Assembly (NCBI GenBank): GCA_951406725.2 | Contig: OX597821.1 | Span: 116,684,001-116,748,000 of the forward strand | Reading direction: 5' to 3' | DNA length: 64,000 nt | Source: Octopus vulgaris | Taxonomy: Eukaryota | Shown here: positions 2,460-48,118 of the stretch, piece by piece | How the letters are laid out: every line of letters begins with the position of its first letter | Numbering within the stretch: the stretch's first letter is position 1 | Notes under the pieces: generated by a model | Told to the model about the DNA's origin: nothing | Seen by the model: only the letters and a program-made list of their open reading frames with translations | Databases searched by the model: none | Made by a program: the position numbers and the translations under genes

Positions 2460-2494
<35 letters not shown>

Positions 2495-2495
<1 letters not shown>

Positions 2496-2583
2496 TGTTT
2501 CAGCTGATATACCCTCCAGCCTTCATCAGGTGTCTTGGGGGAATTTTGAACCTGGGTTTTCATTCCTAAGGTATTTTTCAATG

Positions 2584-2620
<37 letters not shown>

Positions 2621-2883
2621 GGTCACTGTCTACAGGCATTTGGCGTAGTGGTTAAGAGTATGGGCTACTAACCCCAAGATTTCGAGTTTGATTCCAGGCA
2701 GTGACCTGAATAATAATAGTAATAATAATGATAAACACATTGGAAAATACCTTAGGAATGAGAACCCAGGTTCAAAATTTCCCCAAGACACCTGATGAAG
2801 GCTGGAGGGTATATCAACCAAAACAGTGTGTTAACAACAAACAAGATGAGGACAAATATCTGTCAAATGTAAATAATGTACAA
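2495..2883. mobile_element. Second copy of the palindromic tRNA-head/(AAT)n/hammerhead element
   Basis: Inverted arm 2495-2630, tRNA-like head at about 2641-2707 (TGGCGTAGTGG A box), (AAT)n, forward arm with CTGATGAAGGCTGG and decayed GAAA. Confidence 0.85.
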
Positions 2884-4617: not shown

Positions 4618-5113
4618 TCAGTGCACACTGCACTCGTGTTTAGGTAGCATTAATCACTATTTCTCAGTATAAATACTGCTTTGATCACATGCTACACATC
4701 TTCCTTCCAAGCACTGCTGTAAATATCAGAAGTGAGCTAGAACATTAAAACTTGGTGTGCATGCACAACAGACAGACTCCAAGGTCAATCTTTGCTAAGC
4801 AGCTTCACTCTGTATGCTTTAGTTTCATTACTATAGCAACAGTCCAGATACTTATTGTTCATGGTTGAGAAGTAAACCTCTTAAGCTCACACCCACACCT
4901 GTGCTGACAAAGGAAATAATGATTACCACATGATCGTACTTACAAGAACTTCTACCTGTCTCAGAAAATGACAGTGCAAAGATATCATGGAACTTCATTG
5001 TAGAAACAGACTGCCAGATATTTCCATATTAATACAGTTCTATATTTAAGAGATGAGGAATTATTTACATTATTTACATTTGGTGGATATTTGTCCTCAT
5101 CTTGTTTGTTGTT

Positions 5114-5159
5114 AACACAACGTTTCAGCTGATATACTCTCCAGCCTTCATCAGGTGTG
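5114..5159 (-). ncRNA. Minimal type I hammerhead ribozyme motif, opposite arm
   Basis: Reverse complement reads CACAC CTGATGA A GGCTG gagagtatat CAGCT GAAAC GTT GTGTT. Confidence 0.65.
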
Positions 5160-5243
5160 TTGGGGAAATTTCAAACCTGGGTTCTCATTTCTAACATCGA
5201 AAAATACCTTAGGAATGAGAACCCAGGTTCGAAATTTCCCCAA

Positions 5244-5289
5244 GACACCTGAAGAAGGCTGGAGGGTATATCAGCTGAAACGTTGTGTT
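5244..5289 (+). ncRNA. Minimal type I hammerhead ribozyme motif (Penelope-type)
   Basis: GACAC CTGAAGA A GGCTG gagggtatat CAGCT GAAAC GTT GTGTT: stem I GACAC/GTGTT, stem II GGCTG/CAGCT, palindromic AACGTT in place of stem III. Confidence 0.65.
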
Positions 5290-6204
5290 AACAACAAACA
5301 AGATGAGGACAAATATCCATCAAATGTAAATAATGTACATAATTCCTCATCTCTTAAATATAGAACTGTATTAGACAAAATACTGCATTTCATCCAGCAT
5401 GCTAACGATTCTTTTCTACTTTAGGCACAAGGCCCGACATTTTGTGGGAGGGGGCCAGTCAATTAGATCGACCCTCAGTACGCAACTGGTACTTAATTTA
5501 TTGACCCCAAAATGATGAAAGGCAAAGTCGACTTTGGTGGAATTTGAACTCAGAACATAAGACAGATGAAATACCATTAAACATTTCACCCAGCATGCTA
5601 ATATTTCTGCCAGCTTGCCACCTGAGACCTCCAGATATTAAAACAAGCCTTGACATTATTTTCTAGGACAAAAACGACAATATCTTACTATGTATTGACA
5701 CAGTTATACTAAATGATTATAATGCTGCATTGAGGTGAGGTGAAAAGCTATGAAGACTTGGCTGTTGAATAAAATACACTTTGGCAGCTAAGGAATGTGT
5801 CTATCACTTCATTTATAATTGGTACAACTGACATTACAATGGCGTCCGTGACAACAGTGACAGCAGACTACATAAAAAGGCTAACATAGGAACATTCCAG
5901 AAAGTAGAAGTACTAAAATCTACAAAGTGTTGGGGCACCCTAACACAACACATGTTAATCTTGAATGTTGTTTTATGCTTCTTTTTCAATATCTTCCAAA
6001 TTTATATATACATATATGTATGTATATGTATGTATGTATGTATGTATGTATATATATGTACGTATATATATATACATATATGTATGTATATGTATGTATG
6101 TATGTATGTATGCATGCATGCATGTATGTATGTATGTATGTATGTATGTATGTATGTATGCATGTATGCATGCATGCGTGTATGTATGTATGTATGTATG
6201 TATG

Positions 6205-6302: not shown

Positions 6303-7578
6303 AATTTGGAAGATCTTCATCACTTAACATTCATCTTCTCTGCTAGCATGAGTTGGGGGATTTGACAGGAGCTGCTAAGTCTGGGGACTGTGCTCAGGTT
6401 CACTGTCTGCTTTTGAAATGGTTTTTACAGCTGGATACCTTTTTTTAAGTCATTCAGTTTCCAGGGTGGACGGGGTGCTTTTTAATGTGAAACTAGCACC
6501 AGTGAGGTCTGTTTTGGTATGGCGTTTTACAGCTGGATGCCCTTCCTATGGCCAATCACTTTACAGAGTGAACTGGGTGCTTTTTATGTGGCACCAGCAC
6601 CAGTGAGGTCACCATGTAACTTGCAAGACAAAGATCCCTCAACTAAGATGGAGTGTAGTATTGAGTGAGGTGGCCTTTGTGCCAGATGATGAAGGTGTCT
6701 TGCTGCAGAGGAGATACATGATAACAGCAGTCTGAGAGAGAGAGATGATGGCAATGTCCCAGAGCAAACTCACAAGATATGAAGGTTGGCTTCTGTGCCG
6801 GTGGCACGTAAAAAGCACCCACTACACTCATGGAGTGGTTGGCGTTAGGAAGGGCATCTAGCTGTAGAAACACTGCCAGATCAGACTGGAGCCTGGTGCA
6901 GCCCCCTGGCTTCCCAGACCTTGGTCGTACTGTCCAACCCGTGCTAGCATGGAAAACGGACGTTAAACGATGATGATGATGATGATGATGATATAGAGGA
7001 CTGCACAAGATGGATCACACAGAATTTGTTGAGGCATATTTTCTTTGGCCGGATGCTCTCTGTATCAGCAACCCTCACCTGGTTCCATGTCAGGTAATTT
7101 TTTTCTCATGGCTAGACATGTTTGTGTGGGAGATTGGAAATGAAGGACACTGCTTGTATGACGGTGACACTTGTTTACAACAATCATGCAGAGTCAAGAC
7201 AAAGAGACATAAACACACACACACATAAATATATATGACAGGCTTCTTTCAGTTTCCACCCACCAAATCCACTCTTAAGTATTTGGTTGGCCTGGGGCAA
7301 AAGTAGATGACATTGCTGGAAGTAACAGGCAAATAAGCTAACAAAAAATTTTTTTTTCTTTTATGTGAATAATTTTAATCTTTTAATTCTTTCAGTCACT
7401 TGACTGCCGCCATGCTGGAGCACTGCCTTTAGTCGAGAAATCAGCCCCAGGACTTATTCTTTGTATGCCTAGTACTTATTCTATCAGTCTCTTTTGCCAA
7501 ACTGCTAAGTTACAGGGATATAACTTGATGGTGGAGTGACAAACACAGACACCAAGACACACACACAAATATACATAC

Positions 7579-7610
<32 letters not shown>

Positions 7611-7744
7611 GTGTGTATGTGTATATATATATATATTGGCCTGCTCGCTTAGCCAGCGGGGTGGTGTCATTTGAAGGCTGAAACAATGCGAAGCGCATTG
7701 TGACCAGCAATGTGTAGTAACATCTGACAGCCTGGTCGGTCACG

Positions 7745-7794
<50 letters not shown>

Positions 7795-7957
7795 CATATA
7801 TATACATCATCATCATCATCATCGTTTAACGTCCATTTTCCACGCTAGCACGGGTTGGACGGTTCGACCGGGGTCTGGGAAGCCAGGGGCTGCACCAGGC
7901 TCCAGTCTGATCTGGCAGTATTTCTACAGCTGGATGCCCTTCCTAATGCCAACCACG

Positions 7958-7991
<34 letters not shown>

Positions 7992-8850
7992 TACACACGA
8001 ATGGCTTCTTTCAGTCTCCATTTATCAAATCCACTCACAAGGCTTTGGTTGGCCCGAGGCCATAGTCAAAGACACTTGCCCAAGGACTTGCCCAAGGTGC
8101 CATACAGTGGGACTGAACTCAGAACCATGTGGTTGGGAAGCAAGCTTTTTACCACACAGCCAATCCTGCACCTTCTTTGATATAATCAATTAATCTCTTG
8201 GTTGGGTACACTGACCCCATCATCCATTCTGGGTCATGGCAAAACAAGGAGTATTGGCTTTATCTTAGTCTGGTGACTCAAGTGAGTATACCCTACAGTG
8301 ATATCATGTCTTGCTCAGGCTCATCGGTGGATTTGAAACCAGCACGTCAAATTAGTAAATTAATACAATGTCCTTTATGCCACAGCTACTTAGAGGAAAG
8401 AACTGTAAAAGCTACATGATCTGAGGTAGCGAAAGTTAAAAGCCCTAACTAAATACGTGTCAAATAAATATACCCCTCTCTCTACCCACTTCCTTTTGCA
8501 GGAACTGGCTGGATAACCTTTAGATTTATCGGGATTTCATCATCATCATCATCACCATCTGCATCACCACCACCACCACCACCACCATCTTCATCATCAT
8601 CATCATCATCGTCGTCGTCATCGTTTTAAACTTCATTTTTCCCATGCTTGCATGGGGCATGAGGCAGATTTTCTACAACTTGATGCCCTTTCTGTTGCCA
8701 TCCTTAGTGATTTCCTTGTAAAGGAGAGGTAAAATGGCAGCAATATGATGATGATGATGATGATGATGATGGCAGTGGTGGTAATGATGATGATGATGAA
8801 AATGTTGATTTTGAGAATGATGGTGATGATGGTGATGGCAGCAATGATGA

Positions 8851-8884
<34 letters not shown>

Positions 8885-9395
8885 GGTGATGGTGTCAAGG
8901 ATGATTAATGGTGATGTCAAAGCTGCCGATAACTTATATAGCATTAGAGAAGTTAACGATTGTTAATTTCAAACAAAGGATACGAACAAAGGAAGGTTAT
9001 AAGTTATCAATTGATTGATCACATGACTAGTGATAACGAGGTTTTTTTTTTCCTGAATGAGATAATCTTTGACAGACTTCACTTTTTATTATCCAGAAAT
9101 AATGCTTTGAGCCGTATCCCCTTCAACCATAAACCACAGTTTAGCACAGATAACATGTACTTTAAGATAAGGCCTGATAAAATATGTAACATTCTACACA
9201 AAGACCTCAATGCCAACAAAATAATGACCATTAGTAACCCTATGTGCACAGATGTAGTGGTTAAGAAACTCGCTTTCTAACCATGTGATCTCAGGTTCAA
9301 TACCACTGTGTGACACCTTTAGCAAGAGTGTCTTCTACCATACCCTCGGGCTGACCAAAGGTTTGATAGATGGAAACTGGAAGAAGCCTATTCTG

Positions 9396-9433
<38 letters not shown>

Positions 9434-11012: not shown

Positions 11013-11783
11013 GATGATTCTCTTCAATGATGGCTAGAAACGATCATCATCATCATCACCATCAGCATCATTCAGTGTCTGTATTTGAAGTCTTACAATG
11101 AGTTAACACAACAGCATTATGTAAGCATCTGCAGTAAGTGAGTATCTGTTACATTGGTTTACACCTGAGGATTCCTGACGAAGGTATTGAAGAATCTGTT
11201 GCAGTCATGGGAGAGAATCGGTTTCCGAAAAAATAAGTCCAAGGCAGCTTCTGTTGATAGTTAAGTCAGTGTTACTCGGGCTAAACGAAGAAAACAAAAC
11301 ATCCAGTCATCATTGGTTTCATTGTTATAAACAAAAATCTGCTAAATAAATGTTTTACTATATCTTGGGAGGGTCATTATACTGAGAAACACTAGCACTG
11401 ATTCTATTTCACTTCTTTATCATTATTATTAGTGGTGGTGGTGGTAGTAGTAGTAAGGTAGTGAGCTGGAAGAGTCGTTAGCATGCCGGGCGAAATATCA
11501 AATGGCATTTCATCCGTCTTTATGTTCTGGGTTTAAATTCCACCAAGGTGGAATTTGCCTTTCATCCTTTTGGGGGTCAATAAATAAAGTACCAGTCAAA
11601 CACTGGGGATCAATACAATTGACTATCCTCACTCCCCCAAAATTTCAGGCCTTGTGCCTTTAGTAGAAAAGATTATTATTATTATTATTATTATCATTCA
11701 GGAATCGAACTTGGAATCTTGGGGTCAGTAGCCTGCGCTCTTAACCACCACTCCATATTAATGATTCTTCCAGCTCACCACCT

Positions 11784-11861
<78 letters not shown>

Positions 11862-11925
11862 TAGTAATAATAATATTATAGGCATATGGCATAGTAGTTA
11901 AGAGCGCAGGCTAGCTAGATAGATG

Positions 11926-13228: not shown

Positions 13229-15308
13229 AGCATTATTATTATGAAGACGGCAAGCTGGCAGAATTATTAGCATGTCAGGCGAAATGCTTAGAGGTATTTT
13301 ATCTGTCTTTACGTTCTGAGTTCAAATTCTGCCAAGGTCATCTTTGATTTTCATTGTGTTAGGATTGATAAAATAAATGCCAGTTAAATAGGCGCAGGCG
13401 TGGCTGTGTGGTAAGAAGCTTGCTTCCCAACCACATGGTTCTGGATTCAATCCCATTGCATGTCAAGTGTTTTCTATTATAGCCTCAGACCGACCAAAGC
13501 CTTGTGAGTGAATTTGGTAGACAGAAATTGAAAGAAGCTCATCAAGTGTGTGTGTTTGTCTGTGTTTGTCCCCCACCACTGCTTGGCAACTGGTACTGCT
13601 TTGTTTATGTCCCTGTAACTTAGTGGTTCAGCACAAGAGACCAATAGAGTATTAGGCTTTAAAGAATAAGTACTGGGATCAATACATTATTTGACTAAAA
13701 TTTCAAGGTTGTGCTCCAGCATGGCCACAGTCAAGATGACTGAAACAAGTAAAAGATAAAAAAAAACACACCAGGGTTGAGGTAATTGATTTATTCCACT
13801 CCTAAAATAACTGCCGGCCTTGTGTCAGAATCCGAAACCATTACAAAATCTTACAGGAATGGTTCAAGTGCTAAAAGTACAATGAGAGAGGAAATGCTGA
13901 GAGGCTTGGAACAGAATAAAAAATGGTTCCATTGGTGACCGTTTTTACTTTGACTTTAGTAATCTAGTCTCTGCAGTTGGGACTGAAACGGCCAATTCTT
14001 TGGACAGCTGCCAAGCAGCACTGACTGACCCTCTGTTATTCTTTAAACTGATTGAAATTGATCAGAAATGCACCAAAGCCAGATTTAGAACCAACCTCTT
14101 CTACTATGAACCCTTTTTTTTTTTTTTTTTTTTTTTTTTACATTTTTGCCCCCTCTCCAATTCCATGCCCTTTTCTTCAAGAATATTTACTGGTATTTTT
14201 TTCCTGTGCAATATTAATAGCTACTTACAAAACAGTGAGCTGGCAGAAATGTTAGCGGTATTTCGTCTACCATTACGTTCTGAATATAAATTCCGCCAAG
14301 GTCAACTTTGCCTTTCATCCTTTCGGGCTCGATTAAATAAGTACCAGTTACACACTGGGGTCGATATAATCGACTTAATCCGTTTGTCTGTCCTTGTTTG
14401 TCCCTTTTGTCCCTTCTGTGTGTAGCCCCTTGTGGGTGGTAAAGAAATAAATATTTCGTCTGTCTTTATGTTCTGAGTTCAAATTCTGCCAAGGCTGACT
14501 TTGCCTTTCATCCTTTCAAGGTCGATAAATTAAATACCAGTTGTGTACTAGGGTCGATCGAATCGACTGCCCCCACCCCTTTCCCCAAAATTTCAGGCCT
14601 TGCGCCTAGAGTAGAAAAGAATATTAATAGCTACTTCAAGGTGGCATTCTGGAAGAAATGTCAACTTGCTGGACGAAATGCTTAGCAGCATTCCATCTGT
14701 CTTATGTTCTGAGTTCAAATACCGCTGAGGACAACTTTGCTTTTCATCCTTTCAGGGTCGATAAAATAAGTACCAGTTGATGTAATCAACTTACCAGCTT
14801 CCTCAAAATTGCTGGCCTTGTGCCAAAATTTAAAACCAATATTGGCAGCTATTCCAAAAGTCCACTGATCAACCATTGCACCCACCCTACAAGTGCAATG
14901 GTATATTTAGCTATTCTTTAGTGAATAAAAAGTCAGCAGCTGATAACAGGAAAGTATTCAGATTTCTGCAATATGTTTCTTTGGGCATATTGTTGTATGC
15001 AGCCTCAGCCTGAGATTAAGTGTTTGACAACTGGAATGAAGCCAGGTACAAACTGCCCTCTACAAACTGGACAATTTTTTTGGCAGAAAATCAATTGACA
15101 TATAGTTCTATAATTAAGAGATGAGGAATTATGTACATAGGCACAGGAGTGGCTGTGTGGTAAGTAGCTTGCTTACCAACCACATGGTTCTGGGTTCAGT
15201 CCCACTGCGTGACATCTTGGGCAAGTGTCTTCTATTATAGCTTTGGGCCGACCAAAGCCTTGAGACTGGATTTTGGTAGACAGAAACTGAAAGCCCGTTG
15301 TATATATG

Positions 15309-15350
<42 letters not shown>

Positions 15351-16222
15351 CGTGTGTGCCCCCGTTTGTGCCCCCAACATTGCTTGACAACCGATGGTGG
15401 TGTGTTTACGTCCCCGTATCTTAGCAGTTCGGCAAAAGACACCGATAGAATAAGTACTAGGCTTAGAAAGAATAAGTCCTGGGGTTGATTTGCTCAACTA
15501 AAAGGCAATGCTCCAGCATGGCCACATTCAAATGACTGAAACAAGTAAAAGAGAGTAAAAGTCTATTATTTATATTTGACAAGATGAGGACAAATATCCG
15601 TCAAATGTAAATAATGTAAATAATGTATCAATGGACATATTCTGGAGAGAGTTAGTAGCTGGATATGAGTGACCAATGGTCTGGAAATGATAATGGGCGT
15701 TGATGAAGGTTTTAGTAGTTTCTTCTTGGGGTTAATATTATCTATTGTACCCCATATATCTCACTCCCCTAATTTCTGGCCTTGAGCCTATATTAGGAAT
15801 TACCATTATTTAAGGCGGAGAGCTGGCAGAACCATTAGCATTCCGGGCGAAATGTTTAGCAGTATTTCCTCTGTAGCTACATACTGGGTTCAAATTCCGC
15901 CGAGGTCAACTTTGCCTTTCATCCTTTCAGGGTCGATAAAATGAGTACCAGTTGAACACTGGGGTCGATGTAATCGACTATCCCCCTGCCCCAAAACTTC
16001 AGGCCTTATGCCTATAGTAGAAAGGATTATTATTATTATTATTATTATTATTATCATCATCATTGCCATTGCACAGCTTCTAACACTGGAGATGTACTAC
16101 ACTGCCAGTGAACTAAGGTAACAACCCTTATTTTTCGAGCACCTTCCAGAGTATTCAAGCAGTGCTGTTTTCTGCAAGTGCTCCACCCTTATTGCAGCCC
16201 CTATTTGTTCCATGTACTTCTC

Positions 16223-19689: not shown

Positions 19690-20100
19690 AACCCGAACGA
19701 AATTAAGGATAACGCTATGGATTTCTGCCGAAAATTACGCCTCACAGAAGCACTTCACAACTACACCAGTGAAGATGACTCAATAGTAAAAATCAAAAGG
19801 GAATACTGTCCTACAAAAGGCAGAAATAAAGCACTTGATGCTTTTTGTGAACACATTAGCAGTTTTCCTTTTAATACCCTACAAAAACAACGAATTAAAT
19901 CCAACCTTAATGTAAATGGATGGAAAGACCTAATCGAGTTAAAAAATGATATAAACCTCACCATTAAAGAAGCCGACAAAGGAAGTGCAGTAGTGGTGAT
20001 GGTCACAGAGCACTACAAAAATTGAATACTCTCCATGTTGGAAAATAATACTTACTATGAGAAGATAAAACAATACAACCCACAGAAAACACTTAAACAG
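19690..20100 (+). mobile_element. Penelope-like retroelement fragment (N-terminal part of RT), pseudogenised
   Basis: DFCRKLRL...KSNLN...LKNDINLTIKEADKGSAVVVM..EHY matches the PLE F-x-R-K-L-R and I-K-x-A-D-K-G-x-x-V-V motifs; premature stop. Confidence 0.85.
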
Positions 20101-22515: not shown

Positions 22516-22585
22516 GTCTGCTTTCCATGCTGGCATTGGTTGGACAGGAACTGGCAAACTAGAGAACTGCTTATAGAGGTTTACA

Positions 22586-22709
22586 TACATTATTTACATT
22601 TGACAGATATTTGTCCTCATCTTGTTTGTTGTTAACACAACCCTCCAGCCTTCATCAGGTGTGTTGGGAAAATTCCGAACCTGGGTTCTCATTCCTTAGG
22701 TATTTTCGA

Positions 22710-22756
<47 letters not shown>

Positions 22757-23050
22757 GCTCACGACATATGGCGTAGTGGTTAAGAGCGTGGGTTACTAAC
22801 CCCAAGATTCCGAGTTCGATTCCAGGTAGTGACCTAAAAAAAAAAAATAATAATAACAACAACAACAACAACATCGGAAAATACCTTTGGAATGAGAACC
22901 CAGGTTCGAAATTTCCTCAAGACACCTGATGAAGGCTGGAGGATATATCAGCCAAAACATTGTGTTAACAACAAACAAGATGAGGACAAATATCTGTCAA
23001 ATGTAAATAATGTAAATAATGTACATAATTCCTCGTCTCTTAAATACAGA
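22586..23050. mobile_element. Third copy of the palindromic tRNA-head/(AAT)n/hammerhead element, about 330 bp upstream of the MALSU1 ATG
   Basis: Inverted arm plus (TTA)n, head 22769-22835 with A box TGGCGTAGTGG and B box GTTCGATTCC, forward arm ending CCTCGTCTCTTAAATACAGAA. Confidence 0.85.
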
Positions 23051-23380
23051 ATAGAATTTTACATAATTTGATATTTGATTGAATCTTGGAGAAACAGCTT
23101 AAAAGACGTAATGCCAAGGGAGACAAATGATATTTTGATAGTTGTCTCCCTTGTTTAGTGCTAATTGTCGTGTTAATTATAATTTTATTTTAAGAAACGC
23201 ATTTAACGTATTTGTGACTTCGTATCCTCTTTAAAAAGCAGGATCAAATGGTCAGGAATATCAGAAATACTTAAAAACAAACAAACAAACTGATGTACAA
23301 TCTGAAGTGTTTCACGACAGTCTGAAAACGTTCGTCCTTTCGCATGCGGTTCTCGTGTTTGTTTTGCAGATTTAATTACT

Positions 23381-39960: not shown

Positions 39961-40384
39961 ACTCTTTTACTCTTTATTCTTTTACTTGATGCAGTCATTT
40001 TGACTGTGGCCATGCTGGAGCACCACCTTTAGTCGAGCAAATCGACCCCAGGACGTTTTTGTAAGCCTAGTACTTATTCTATTGGTCTCTTTTGCCGAAC
40101 CGCTAAGTTACGGGGGACGTAAACACACCAGCATCAGTTATCAAGCGATGTTGGTGGGGGACAAACACAGACACACACACATATACACACACATACATAT
40201 ATACATATATATACACATATACGACAGGCTTCTTTCAGTTTCCATCTACCAAATCCACTCACAAGGCTTTGGTCGACCCGAGGCTATAGTAGAAGACACT
40301 TGCCCAAGGTGCCGTGCAGTGCGACTGAACCCGATACTATGTGGTTGGTAAGCAAGCTACTTACCACACAGCCACTCCTACGCT
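39961..40384 (-). mobile_element. tRNA-derived SINE family 1, inverted copy
   Basis: Reverse complement of 40536-40950 over its whole length. Confidence 0.9.
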
Positions 40385-40535
40385 ACAATGATGATTATTG
40401 TTAAGTTAGCGTTAATGTCTTTAAGACATGGATTATCAATGTAAGTTAGCATTACTGTAGTTAATGCAGGGATTATTAGTTAGTTAAGTAGAATTAACAT
40501 GTTTAATCCAGAGATTGTTTCTATACAATCCTATA

Positions 40536-40950
40536 GGCGTAGGAGTGGGTGTGTGGTAAGTAGTTTGCTTATGAACCACATGGTTCCAGGTTCAGTCTCA
40601 CTGCGTGGCACCTTGGGCAAGTGTCTTCTACTATAGCCTCAGGCCAACCAAAGCCTTGTGAGTGAATTTGGTAGACGGAAACTGAAAGAAGCCTGTCGTA
40701 TATATGTATATATATATATATGTACGTGTGTGTATATGTTTGTGTGTCTGTGTTTGTCCCCCACCAACATCGCTTGACAACTGATGCTGGTGTGTTTATG
40801 TCCCCATAACTTAGCAGTTCGGCAAAAGAGACCGATAGAATAAGTACTAGGTTTACAAAGAATAAGTCCTGGGGTCGATTTGCTCGACTAAAGGCGGTGC
40901 TCCAGCATGGCCACAGTCAAATGGCTGAAACCAGTAAAAGAGTAAAGAGT
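40536..40950 (+). mobile_element. tRNA-derived SINE family 1 (most abundant; central microsatellite, GTAAAAGA tail)
   Basis: GGCGTAGGAGTGG..TGTGG/GGTTCAGTC head; other copies at about 13391-13760(+), 15140-15562(+), 19262-19668(+), 39961-40384(-), 45823-46243(-), 51530-51900(+), 55233-55636(-), 57234-57670(+). Confidence 0.9.
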
Positions 40951-46297: not shown

Positions 46298-48118
46298 AGC
46301 ACACACATACACACATGTATATGATGATGATTATATATAGATATAAATATATATAGACATATGTATATGCACACACACATACACATACACATGCACACTG
46401 CGAATCATGTGGTCTTGGGTTCATTTCCACTGCGTGGCACTTTGGGCAGTTGTCTTCTAAAATATCTTTTAGCTAACCAAATTCTTGTGAATAGATTTGG
46501 TAGCTGGAAACTGAAAGAAGCCCATTCTCTGGTATGTATGTGTGTTTGTGTGTGTGTGTATTTACTTATGTATGTATGGCACCTGTGCTTGTGACATGTA
46601 AAATGCACCATTTGAGTGTGACTAATGCCAGTGCCACCTGACTGGCACCCTTGCCAGTGACATGTAAAATGCACCATTTGAGTGTGGCTAACTTTGAAAT
46701 GGTAATGGATTTAGGAACCACTGCAGGCACAGGCATGGCTGTAGGGTTAAGAAGTTCGCTTCTCAATCATAGAGCTTTAGGTTCAGTTCCATTGTGCAGC
46801 ACCTTGGTCAAGTATCTTCTCCTATAGCTCTGGGCTGACCAAAGCTTTGAGAGGGAATTTGGGAGAAAGAAACTGAAAGAAGCCCATTATGTGTGTGTGT
46901 GTGTGTGTGTGTATGGCTATTTATGAATTATGTTGAGCTATGCCTAGAAACGGTGAGGTTTGTTGACACTTTCTGTCAAAATTGTCCAATAGCTCTGCAT
47001 CTTCAAATTCCTCTTTGGGTTGTGCTTTTGTGGTTTCTTTTCTTCTCACGATCCCAGAAGTCCTTCCATTGATTTGCTGTCAACCTCCCCCTTTACTCTT
47101 ATGGTGCTTATTGATATTAATTTGGTACTAATGTTGATGCTGCTGGCATTCCTGTCGTTACAGATATTCTTTTCTACTCTAGGCACAAGGCCCGAAATTT
47201 TTTGGGGAGGTGCGGGGGGCAGTCGATTAGATTGACCCCAGTTCGCAACTGGTACTTAAATTATCAACCCTGAAAGGATGAAAGCAAACAACCTCAGCGG
47301 AATTTGAACTCAGAACATAGCAACAGAGGAAATATTGCTAATCATTCTGCCCAGCGTGCTAACATTTCTGCCAGCTTGCTGCCTTCTGTTATTACAGCTA
47401 TTGTTGATGTTGTTGAAAGCATATCTCAGCAATTAGGGTATTTGACTCATGATCATAAGGTCGTGGGTTCAATTCCTGGTGGCACATTGTGCCTTTCAGC
47501 AAGCCACTGTATTTCGTATTCTTCCAGTTCACTCAGCTGGCAAAAATTGTCATACCTGTAATTCAAAAGGCCAGCCTTTTCACATTCTGTATCACACTGA
47601 ATCTTTCTGAGAATTATGTTAAGGGTAGGTGTGTCTTCAGGTACAACTCATTTTTGCCAGCTGAGTGAACTGGAGTAATGAGAAATAAAGTGTCTTGCTG
47701 AAAGGTGGCGAGTTGGCAGAAATGTTAGCACGCCGGGCGAAATGCTTAGCGGTATTTCATCTGCTGCGACGTTCTGAGTTCAAATTCCGCCAAGGTCGAC
47801 TTTGCCTTTCATCCTTTCGGGGTCGATTAAATAAGTACCAGTTAATCACTGGGGTCGATGTAATCAACTCAATCCATTTGTCTGTCCTTGTTTGTCCTCT
47901 CTGTTTTTAGCCCCTTGTGGGTAGTAAAGAAATAGGTATGTGTGTCTGTGGAGTATTCAGCCACTTGCATGCTAATTCCATGAGCCGATTGTTCCATTGA
48001 TCGGATCAATTGGAACTCTTGTCGTCATAACTGACAGAAATGCCAGTTTTTTTTTTTTCCGTTGCTGTTGTTATTGATGTTGCCATGATGTTGATTCATA
48101 AAATTTTTCTATTTTTAG

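Follow-up and report, generated by a model that had tools for sequence, protein, structure and literature searches.

A hammerhead-bearing inverted repeat of Octopus vulgaris is the pseudo-LTR of a Penelope/Poseidon element and carries a putative Pol III promoter

The inverted repeat at 22586-23051 of the window (the whole 64,000-nt stretch of Octopus vulgaris DNA analysed here) is a head-to-head insertion of a Penelope/Poseidon pseudo-LTR, the worn end-piece of an abundant protein-coding element. The repeated unit is ~295 nt long and comprises a tRNA-like head, an (AAT)n tract, a minimal hammerhead, and a tail; in the autonomous element it is made up of the 29 nt after the stop codon, then head and spacer, and finally the ORF's first ~54 codons. 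Judging from sequence features, we propose, with a probability of about 60%, that the tRNA-derived segment of this pseudo-LTR is a Pol III promoter yielding both short SINE-like RNAs and the full-length template, which are inserted head to head. Of these products, the short RNAs are likely, and the full-length template probably, made by Pol III.

A Poseidon-type relic present in two family loci led to the right autonomous family. The end of its ORF is kept in 21 of 30 loci, and at every one of the 21 the head comes next within 75 nt; at L277 the hammerhead and tail run straight into the ORF, and at L266, a partial tandem, the repeat likewise continues into the ORF. Reading along the long element, the ORF stop is followed by 29 nt, the tRNA-like head, (AAT)n, the start codon, the hammerhead, the tail, and the remaining ORF. 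The majority sequence of the copies is a single 838-aa frame (2,514 nt) of RT/GIY-YIG type that starts inside the unit, with the hammerhead and tail falling within its first ~54 codons. This frame carries DKG at 299, YVDD at 539, and, at ~735, the endonuclease motif VY..Y.GET, and has no CxxC, whereas the CX2-5CxxC linker that marks Neptune and Nematis is present in the Neptune-type control. The Pfam RVT_1 match (E 2.7e-6) lies just under the cut-off, Pfam gave no GIY-YIG match on the decayed copies, and some homologs of the ORF carry PF01541. Identity of the majority ORF is 72% over 790 aa with P0156 and 57% over 830 aa with P0007; the N-terminus of the latter carries the matching peptide encoded over the hammerhead. 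A protein search with a 52-aa frame gave three matches among longer proteins, none of them an autonomous ORF, and the same frame returned only short copies from the genome. Two octopus gene models (P0002 and P0004) begin with repeat-derived peptides and represent exonised copies or annotation artefacts.

A preliminary description of this DNA had read the feature as a separate parasite joining a tRNA head to a Penelope tail, and had suggested a search for an autonomous PLE with the same tail. That search succeeded (L277, L266, and the 21 ORF-end loci), and the suspected Penelope link is borne out in that the unit is the terminal repeat of an autonomous Penelope/Poseidon element; the separate parasite falls away, since that element's own repeat includes the head and its ORF begins with the hammerhead half. 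These loci identify the unit as a pseudo-LTR rather than a separate SINE. The predominance of short copies, many of which start at the head, would suit an independent tRNA-headed SINE or retrozyme that borrowed only a Penelope tail, but this is highly improbable given the head's place in the autonomous element at 21/21 ORF-end loci, the few bases of the long element's pre-head sequence that short copies retain, and the fact that only four non-CpG sites vary by >8%, no separate short-copy lineage being apparent from the variable sites. Measured against the SINEBase definition (PMC3531059), the unit resembles a SINE in its length (~295 nt), in a head colinear with tRNA genes, and in its internal A and B boxes, but is not a separate partner-dependent family with a simple-repeat 3' tail, its 3' end being a defined Penelope tail. 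Penelope/Poseidon hallmarks are present in the form of a pseudo-LTR overlapping the ORF start, partial tandems, an inverted 5'-truncated copy, a one-sided tail, and a TSD; where D. virilis Penelope has a Pol II-type internal promoter and a 5' intron, this family has the tRNA-derived segment. A retrozyme-like reading is not supported either, as the promoterless head-to-tail tandems typical of non-LTR retrozymes were not found in 70 loci, where copies are head-to-head pairs or solo with at most a partial tandem.

At the focal site, the back-to-back inverted arms were found as described earlier (Table 1), and the right arm has its A and B boxes intact and no T4 run before 23057. In the minus arm, the head and the last ~40 nt are missing, and a 16-nt deletion takes out the 3' strand of stem II together with GAAA; the right-arm hammerhead shows the decay of GAAA to AAAA that had been noted. 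Neither core is intact, contrary to the claim of a hammerhead in each arm, and the hammerhead of this copy is predicted to be dead. Its TSD match of 8 nt alone is below the 9-nt cut-off of the family TSD count. The reconstructed two-headed layout is not present at 22586, 2495, or 5035 but does occur elsewhere (e.g., L002, L009, L071).

Table 1. Coordinates of the focal copy and related features in the window
Feature	Position	Strand	Remarks
Left TSD copy	22580..22587	+	8 nt exact, or 12 nt with two mismatches
Inverted, tail-less, 5'-truncated arm (unit positions ~76-253)	22586..22746	-	(TTA)n and hammerhead region
Junction: short fold-back of head start and quasi-palindromic leader before tRNA +1	22750..22762	+	From sequence; also in other copies
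Plus arm of focal copy	22756-23051	+	Head, A/(AAT)n tract, hammerhead, defined 3' end
tRNA-derived head, no cloverleaf	22763..22835	+	Colinear with genomic tRNA genes
A box	22769-22779	+	Intact, focal head
B box	22814-22822	+	Intact, focal head
A/(AAT)n/(AAC)n spacer	22836..22873	+	From sequence
ORF of autonomous element, initial ~53 codons	22892..23051	+	From sequence; frame still open in focal copy
Minimal type I hammerhead: stem I, CUGAUGA, bulged A, stem II, decayed GAAA, palindromic stem III	22921..22966	+	Predicted inactive
Penelope "tail", ~26-45 nt extension on one arm only	23010..23051	+	From arm comparison
Earliest T4 run downstream, possible Pol III stop	23057..23065	+	Overlaps right TSD copy (23058-23065)
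Second insertion, 2494-2631(-)/2632-2880(+)	2494..2880	.	Truncated minus arm and headed tail-less plus arm
Third insertion, 5033-5194(-)/5192-5370(+)	5033..5370	.	Two head-less arms, each with tail and intact hammerhead core
Divergent head remnants, 11672-11758(-) and 11881-11913(+)	11672..11913	.	Simple repeats and piece of another repeat between
Outer ends, 15101-15138(-)/15579-15627(+)	15101..15627	.	14-nt TSD with one mismatch; middle is another short repeat
RT-upstream relic, older Neptune-type Penelope-like family	19681-20100		Copies 80-89% identical to each other

Elsewhere in the window, the inverted arms placed at 2495-2883 and 5035-5368 by the preliminary description lie very nearly there, and the paired head remnants (given as 11690-11912) and both ends of the copy at 15101-15630, around another repeat, were also recovered. 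TSDs were looked for at the second and third insertions and none was found. Among the paired arms compared at 22586, 2495, and 5035, two intact cores occur only in the 5035 copy, which is head-less; this insertion departs from the family's one-tail rule in that both its arms are tailed, and its two intact cores differ at N7. The RT relic placed at 19690-20100 is Penelope-like, as supposed, but does not hold as a partner of the unit, belonging to a Neptune-type family with non-matching ends: 40 loci of its relatives and 30 GIY-YIG loci were without the unit, with two exceptions that are each a separate insertion of it. A young family related to this relic has many open frames of 800-870 aa in the genome. 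At least two further abundant tRNA-headed short repeats occur in the window, some as inverted pairs (e.g., 15139-15560, 40157-40945, 47701-47939; families D12-D18).

The Penelope/Poseidon family is real, abundant, and now decaying. A 35-mer from the hammerhead has 1,965 exact matches in the 2.8-Gb genome versus none for its reversed control, and five insertions in 20 evenly chosen 10-kb stretches give an estimate of ~70,000 insertions (95% range 23,000-163,000). Median non-CpG divergence is 3.9% over 229 arms in a sample biased to best matches, and CpG sites in family copies are strongly decayed. Pieces along the repeat and the ORF are present in contigs of three further sequencing runs (organisms B, D, and E); no relatives were found among viral contigs. 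The long element is found repeatedly, as decayed copies that are nearly identical, on one small contig (C31: L180, L182, L183, and a dozen more) and on C7, apparently through segmental duplication.

The insertion footprint was read from 70 of the first 100 listed 35-mer matches (30 + 40) on one chromosome, a sample that favours copies with an intact hammerhead 35-mer. Head-to-head pairs make up 46 of the 70 insertions, and the remaining 24 have no detected partner arm, so that the palindrome is not a fixed structure of the element, as had been assumed, but the ordinary Penelope footprint. Exactly one tail is present in 43 of the 46 pairs, the other three being tail-less. In the 43 one-tail pairs, the tailed arm ends at unit position 284-295 and the other arm mostly at 249-269, and the tail-less arm is longer than the tailed one in 21, shorter in 14, and of similar length in 8. 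TSD scores of at least 9 were obtained for 26/38 scorable pairs versus 0-4/38 in six mismatched controls, with TSD lengths of 10-16 nt and one mismatch allowed. A palindrome with a one-sided tail and a 10-16 bp TSD amounts to the known Penelope insertion footprint, as described for endonuclease-bearing Penelope elements (PMC8557442, PMC3846280). An anole element is reported to nick both strands and to extend them from two internal start sites, one on either side of the tail (PMC11167929), and the observation that either arm may be long or tailed fits two-site priming of that kind by analogy. Between the arms of a pair, the variable hammerhead position agrees in all 34 pairs of the anchored set and in 29 of 35 unselected pairs (~21 expected), and private non-CpG changes are common to both arms in 33/361 cases versus 3% between loci. 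The two arms thus usually come from the same source, and the six discordant pairs among the 35 indicate that the process is not strictly one of folding back. At nine loci (L201, L224, L229, L089, L197, L205, L216, L096, and L202), other repeats with an (AAT)n end are located within or beside the element's (AAT)n tract; at two of these (L201 and L224) head and body lie ~600 nt apart on account of the inserted repeat. Insertions would seem to favour this tract as a landing site.

The tRNA-derived head with A and B boxes claimed at the outset is supported by alignment. Positions 1 to ~70 of the head align colinearly with genomic tRNA genes, with a best score of 64 versus a shuffle maximum of 43, and tRNA-Arg scored best among the six isotypes in 30 sampled loci. 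In the majority head, the A and B boxes match the consensus, the acceptor stem is lost, and no cloverleaf folds. The Rfam tRNA match is sub-threshold (17.6 bits, cut-off 29) and ARAGORN found no tRNA in the 64-kb window; as ARAGORN is blind to the head in the window, its blank on 29 relative loci is uninformative. An A/B-box pattern recovers only 5 of the family's own 30 loci, and relatives were therefore judged by alignment scores. None of 16 relatives with a downstream hammerhead has a tRNA-like stretch between ORF and hammerhead (scores 22-41), whereas 16 of the 30 own loci score 52-69 in the same test, so the head is particular to this Penelope/Poseidon family among the elements sampled.

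The 5' ends of copies are concentrated at this head. Eight of the 70 insertions, which end in (AAT)n beside other repeats, were dropped from the count and five were corrected by hand; 36 of the 49 long arms reaching +17 then end between -18 and +17, and the other 13 run into the ORF. The rate of 5' ends is 0.032 per nt at the head start versus 0.0018 upstream and ~0.0017 downstream (~18-19x). At base level the ends lie mostly at -8 to +5, and counting by eye, 37 of 50 heads end at about -8 to +12, 12 are ORF-linked, and 1 is ambiguous. Pol III would be expected to initiate close to -6. The majority of headed copies start at the tRNA 5' end and are likely products of short RNAs that Pol III transcribed from the repeat, and the SINE-like idea of the preliminary description likely survives in this changed form, as short RNAs from the element's own repeat. 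The 13 arms running into the ORF indicate that longer RNA or tandem read-through also exists.

Penelope elements with Pol II-type motifs are known to have palindromes at inverted junctions and at the 5' ends of their pseudo-LTRs (PMC3846280), and as palindromic junctions are common in Penelope generally, the pile-up of ends alone does not name the polymerase. The tRNA segment could instead be a dead passenger, an old SINE head, with the short copies representing 5'-truncated Pol II products and the palindrome favouring self-priming or annealing at that point. Such a history would sit well with the short fold-backs at the head start (at least 15 nt at the pre-+1 palindrome in four heads) and with the inability of the head to fold as a tRNA. 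We nevertheless regard it as decidedly unlikely: the peak includes solo copies, and long arms also stop there where the partner is short or lacking altogether (e.g., L074, L080, L082, L099, L192, L195, L210, L219), the majority A and B boxes are at consensus though the acceptor stem has been lost, and the coding strand is free of T4 runs.

That strand has no T4 run in the majority sequence, either within the 2,514-nt ORF or over the whole 2,971 nt, and the earlier observation that no T4 run separates head and hammerhead is upheld. Three nulls predict means of 2.9-4.7 runs (P 0.005-0.03), and under the strictest, synonymous permutation, P is 0.02-0.03, with 2 of 48 control ORFs also reaching P<=0.03. 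Individual copies contain 10 T4 runs in 26.8 kb (0.37 per kb), all singletons at different places. By comparison, young Neptune-type ORFs of this genome contain 11 and 7 runs, and an older Neptune-type family given the same treatment has 10 in its majority sequence and 4.5 per kb in its copies. None of 48 related ORFs of other organisms (those with a usable open frame at 80 loci) is T4-free; these controls are distant (30-45% identity), and the T4 result is one test on a majority sequence. For 20 control ORFs of similar T content, the density is 3.0 T4 per kb, which puts the chance of zero in 2.5 kb at ~0.0005. A T run of at least four lies within 25 nt downstream in 23 of the 30 sampled tRNA loci. 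The T4-free strand, the head, and the end peak are the unusual part of this family and together point to Pol III transcription.

The location of the end peak at the head would equally be expected if Pol III fired the short RNA only, the captured tRNA segment giving SINE-like copies from 3' and solo repeats, the autonomous element being read by Pol II from its own or a host promoter, and the lack of T runs being due to chance or composition. A characterised Penelope promoter resembles TATA-less LINE promoters (PMC2377424), the autonomous partners of elements with Pol III promoters have been argued to need Pol II (PMC10886601), and the P value under the strictest null is just 0.02-0.03. We hold this division of labour to be possible but unlikely, as neither the 48 related ORFs nor the two Neptune-type families include a T4-free example, and no other promoter is evident in the ~160 nt from stop to start, which are mostly head and (AAT)n.

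Under the preferred reading, in which Pol III makes both RNAs, any pseudo-LTR would initiate transcription, ~6 nt ahead of its tRNA-like +1. A 3' or solo repeat would yield a ~300-nt RNA that stops at the earliest T run in the flank, and a 5' repeat a transcript through the terminator-free ORF. The RT/GIY-YIG protein would then bind a region in the first codons and nick both target strands ~11-13 bp apart, cDNA would begin at two internal sites bracketing the tail, as it does in vitro for the anole element, and two cDNAs, usually from the same source, would be joined head to head, often via the short palindrome at the RNA 5' end. The expected insertion would have inverted arms of unequal length, a single tail, and a TSD. 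RNA made by Pol III is uncapped and serves poorly as a message, and the protein may consequently need another transcript. We lean, with somewhat less assurance, towards the broader view that an autonomous coding retrotransposon has switched to Pol III by capturing a tRNA promoter and purging terminators from 3 kb of its coding strand, its end repeats acting as self-transcribing SINEs that outnumber the parent.

RNA reads show copies inside RNA and say nothing about the polymerase. In three RNA runs, 6,366-9,405 reads each fell on one long copy, equally in both directions (unstranded libraries), with a depth that follows the 3' bias of the genomic copies (~2-18 over the N-terminal ORF versus >1,000 on the repeat) and with palindromic junctions included. 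The equal directions and the included junctions are as expected of copies embedded in host transcripts. No read starts or ends were seen at the head or the predicted cleavage site in these libraries, which being unstranded cannot decide cleavage.

The octopus element resembles the endonuclease-bearing (EN+) PLEs of the Penelope/Poseidon group (D. virilis Penelope, Anolis PAc, Adineta Pen2/Pen2a; PMC11167929, PMC3846280, PMC8557442, PMC4209133), as these are described, in its single ~840-aa ORF with RT and, at the C-terminus, a GIY-YIG-type motif; in a pseudo-LTR over the ORF start, partial tandems, an inverted 5'-truncated copy, a TSD, and an optional 30-40 nt tail; and in a minimal type I hammerhead whose positions 9 and 10.1 have a base between them and whose stem III is palindromic. 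It differs from them, their internal promoters being described as TATA/Inr-like or TATA-less, in a repeat with a tRNA-derived A/B-box segment, a coding strand without T4, and tens of thousands of copies that start at the tRNA 5' end. The palindrome and the hammerhead are ordinary for the Penelope class; the promoter region, the start peak, and the T4-free strand are not. Pol III promoters in terminal repeats are also reported for TRIMp3 (Cassandra, Helenus, Ajax; PMC10886601), which are however non-autonomous LTR elements whose LTR is not common to the autonomous partner, whereas the octopus repeat belongs to a coding Penelope element. In the Schistosoma repeats Sm-alpha and Sj-alpha, a tRNA-related Pol III promoter is followed by a hammerhead at high copy number (PMC2770079, PMC6765202), and the combination of tRNA head and hammerhead is therefore not itself new; those repeats are described as non-coding and tandem-dependent with canonical hammerheads, and the passages concerned do not present them as terminal repeats of autonomous elements, or as having an inverted arm and tail. 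Non-LTR retrozymes and other non-autonomous PLE derivatives (PMC7761336; bioRxiv 10.64898/2026.07.22.740005; MRC1 in PMC8557442) are short hammerhead-bearing pseudo-LTR derivatives thought to be moved by PLE enzymes; retrozymes are characterised as head-to-tail tandem repeats without a promoter, whereas the octopus unit occurs dispersed and in head-to-head arrangement, and its head resembles a promoter.

The short unit may already be named among octopus SINEs or in repeat collections. Octopus SINEs were reportedly described by Ohshima and Okada in 1994, and the names OK and OR1 are said to be among them. OR2, OK, and OR1 are likewise tRNA-derived retroposons, OR2 being a CORE SINE (PMC4758252), and the repeat library of PMC13282606, the consulted text of which does not mention a hammerhead, could include the family. 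In the open-access literature, we found no description of a Penelope element with a tRNA-derived repeat, nor of an autonomous retrotransposon transcribed by Pol III. According to the standard division, autonomous retroelements use Pol II and only non-coding parasites Pol III (PMC3531059, PMC10886601). If our reading is true, a Penelope family built for Pol III would break this division, and would offer a direct route to SINE origin in which a promoter is captured inside the partner's own repeat and the SINE is born inside its partner. It would also be a natural case of a long Pol III template, perhaps a message, and would raise the question of how an uncapped RNA with a hammerhead in its first codons is translated. 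In host transcripts, the ~70,000 mostly palindromic insertions are in addition a source of double-stranded RNA, and they also give rise to mis-annotated exons and tRNA pseudogenes.

The majority hammerhead combines a 5-bp stem I with CUGAUGA, a single additional base, stem II, GAAA, and a stem III made of the palindrome ACGU, all of them features given for Penelope minimal hammerheads (PMC4209133). Its core is intact in 49/107 arms, and the free position N7 is the only non-CpG variable core site among sources. Stems I and II covary across 11 related families of other organisms, with sequence changing and pairing kept, whereas covariation within the family is uninformative as copies decay from few sources; the earlier assignment to minimal type I hammerheads with a palindromic stem III is upheld. 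The suggested Rfam/Infernal scan fared less well: no hammerhead family was matched at E<=1 in the window or at E<=10 in two sub-regions, the matches being microsatellite-driven miRNA models, and single-strand folding z-scores of two intact hammerheads are weak (-1.2 and -0.4). Minimal hammerheads of the Penelope type are reported to cut weakly, as dimers (PMC4209133), and the anole hammerhead to need protein and to be dispensable for insertion in vitro (PMC11167929). The octopus hammerhead is inherited from the Penelope repeat, and its cleavage is probably dimer- or protein-dependent. The role of the Penelope hammerhead is described as open (PMC8557442, PMC11167929), and the octopus family may give it a context for testing.

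A second short hammerhead family (~230 nt, T-rich, with the same palindromic stem III; L311-L340, e.g., L052:1525-1700) gave 1,173 first-look candidates, and neither a tRNA head nor a linked ORF was found in 30 of its loci, so that it did not serve as a control. More hammerhead-like motifs with other stems occur at L053, L066, L069, L106, L114, and L063, which suggests several more Penelope-like families in this genome.
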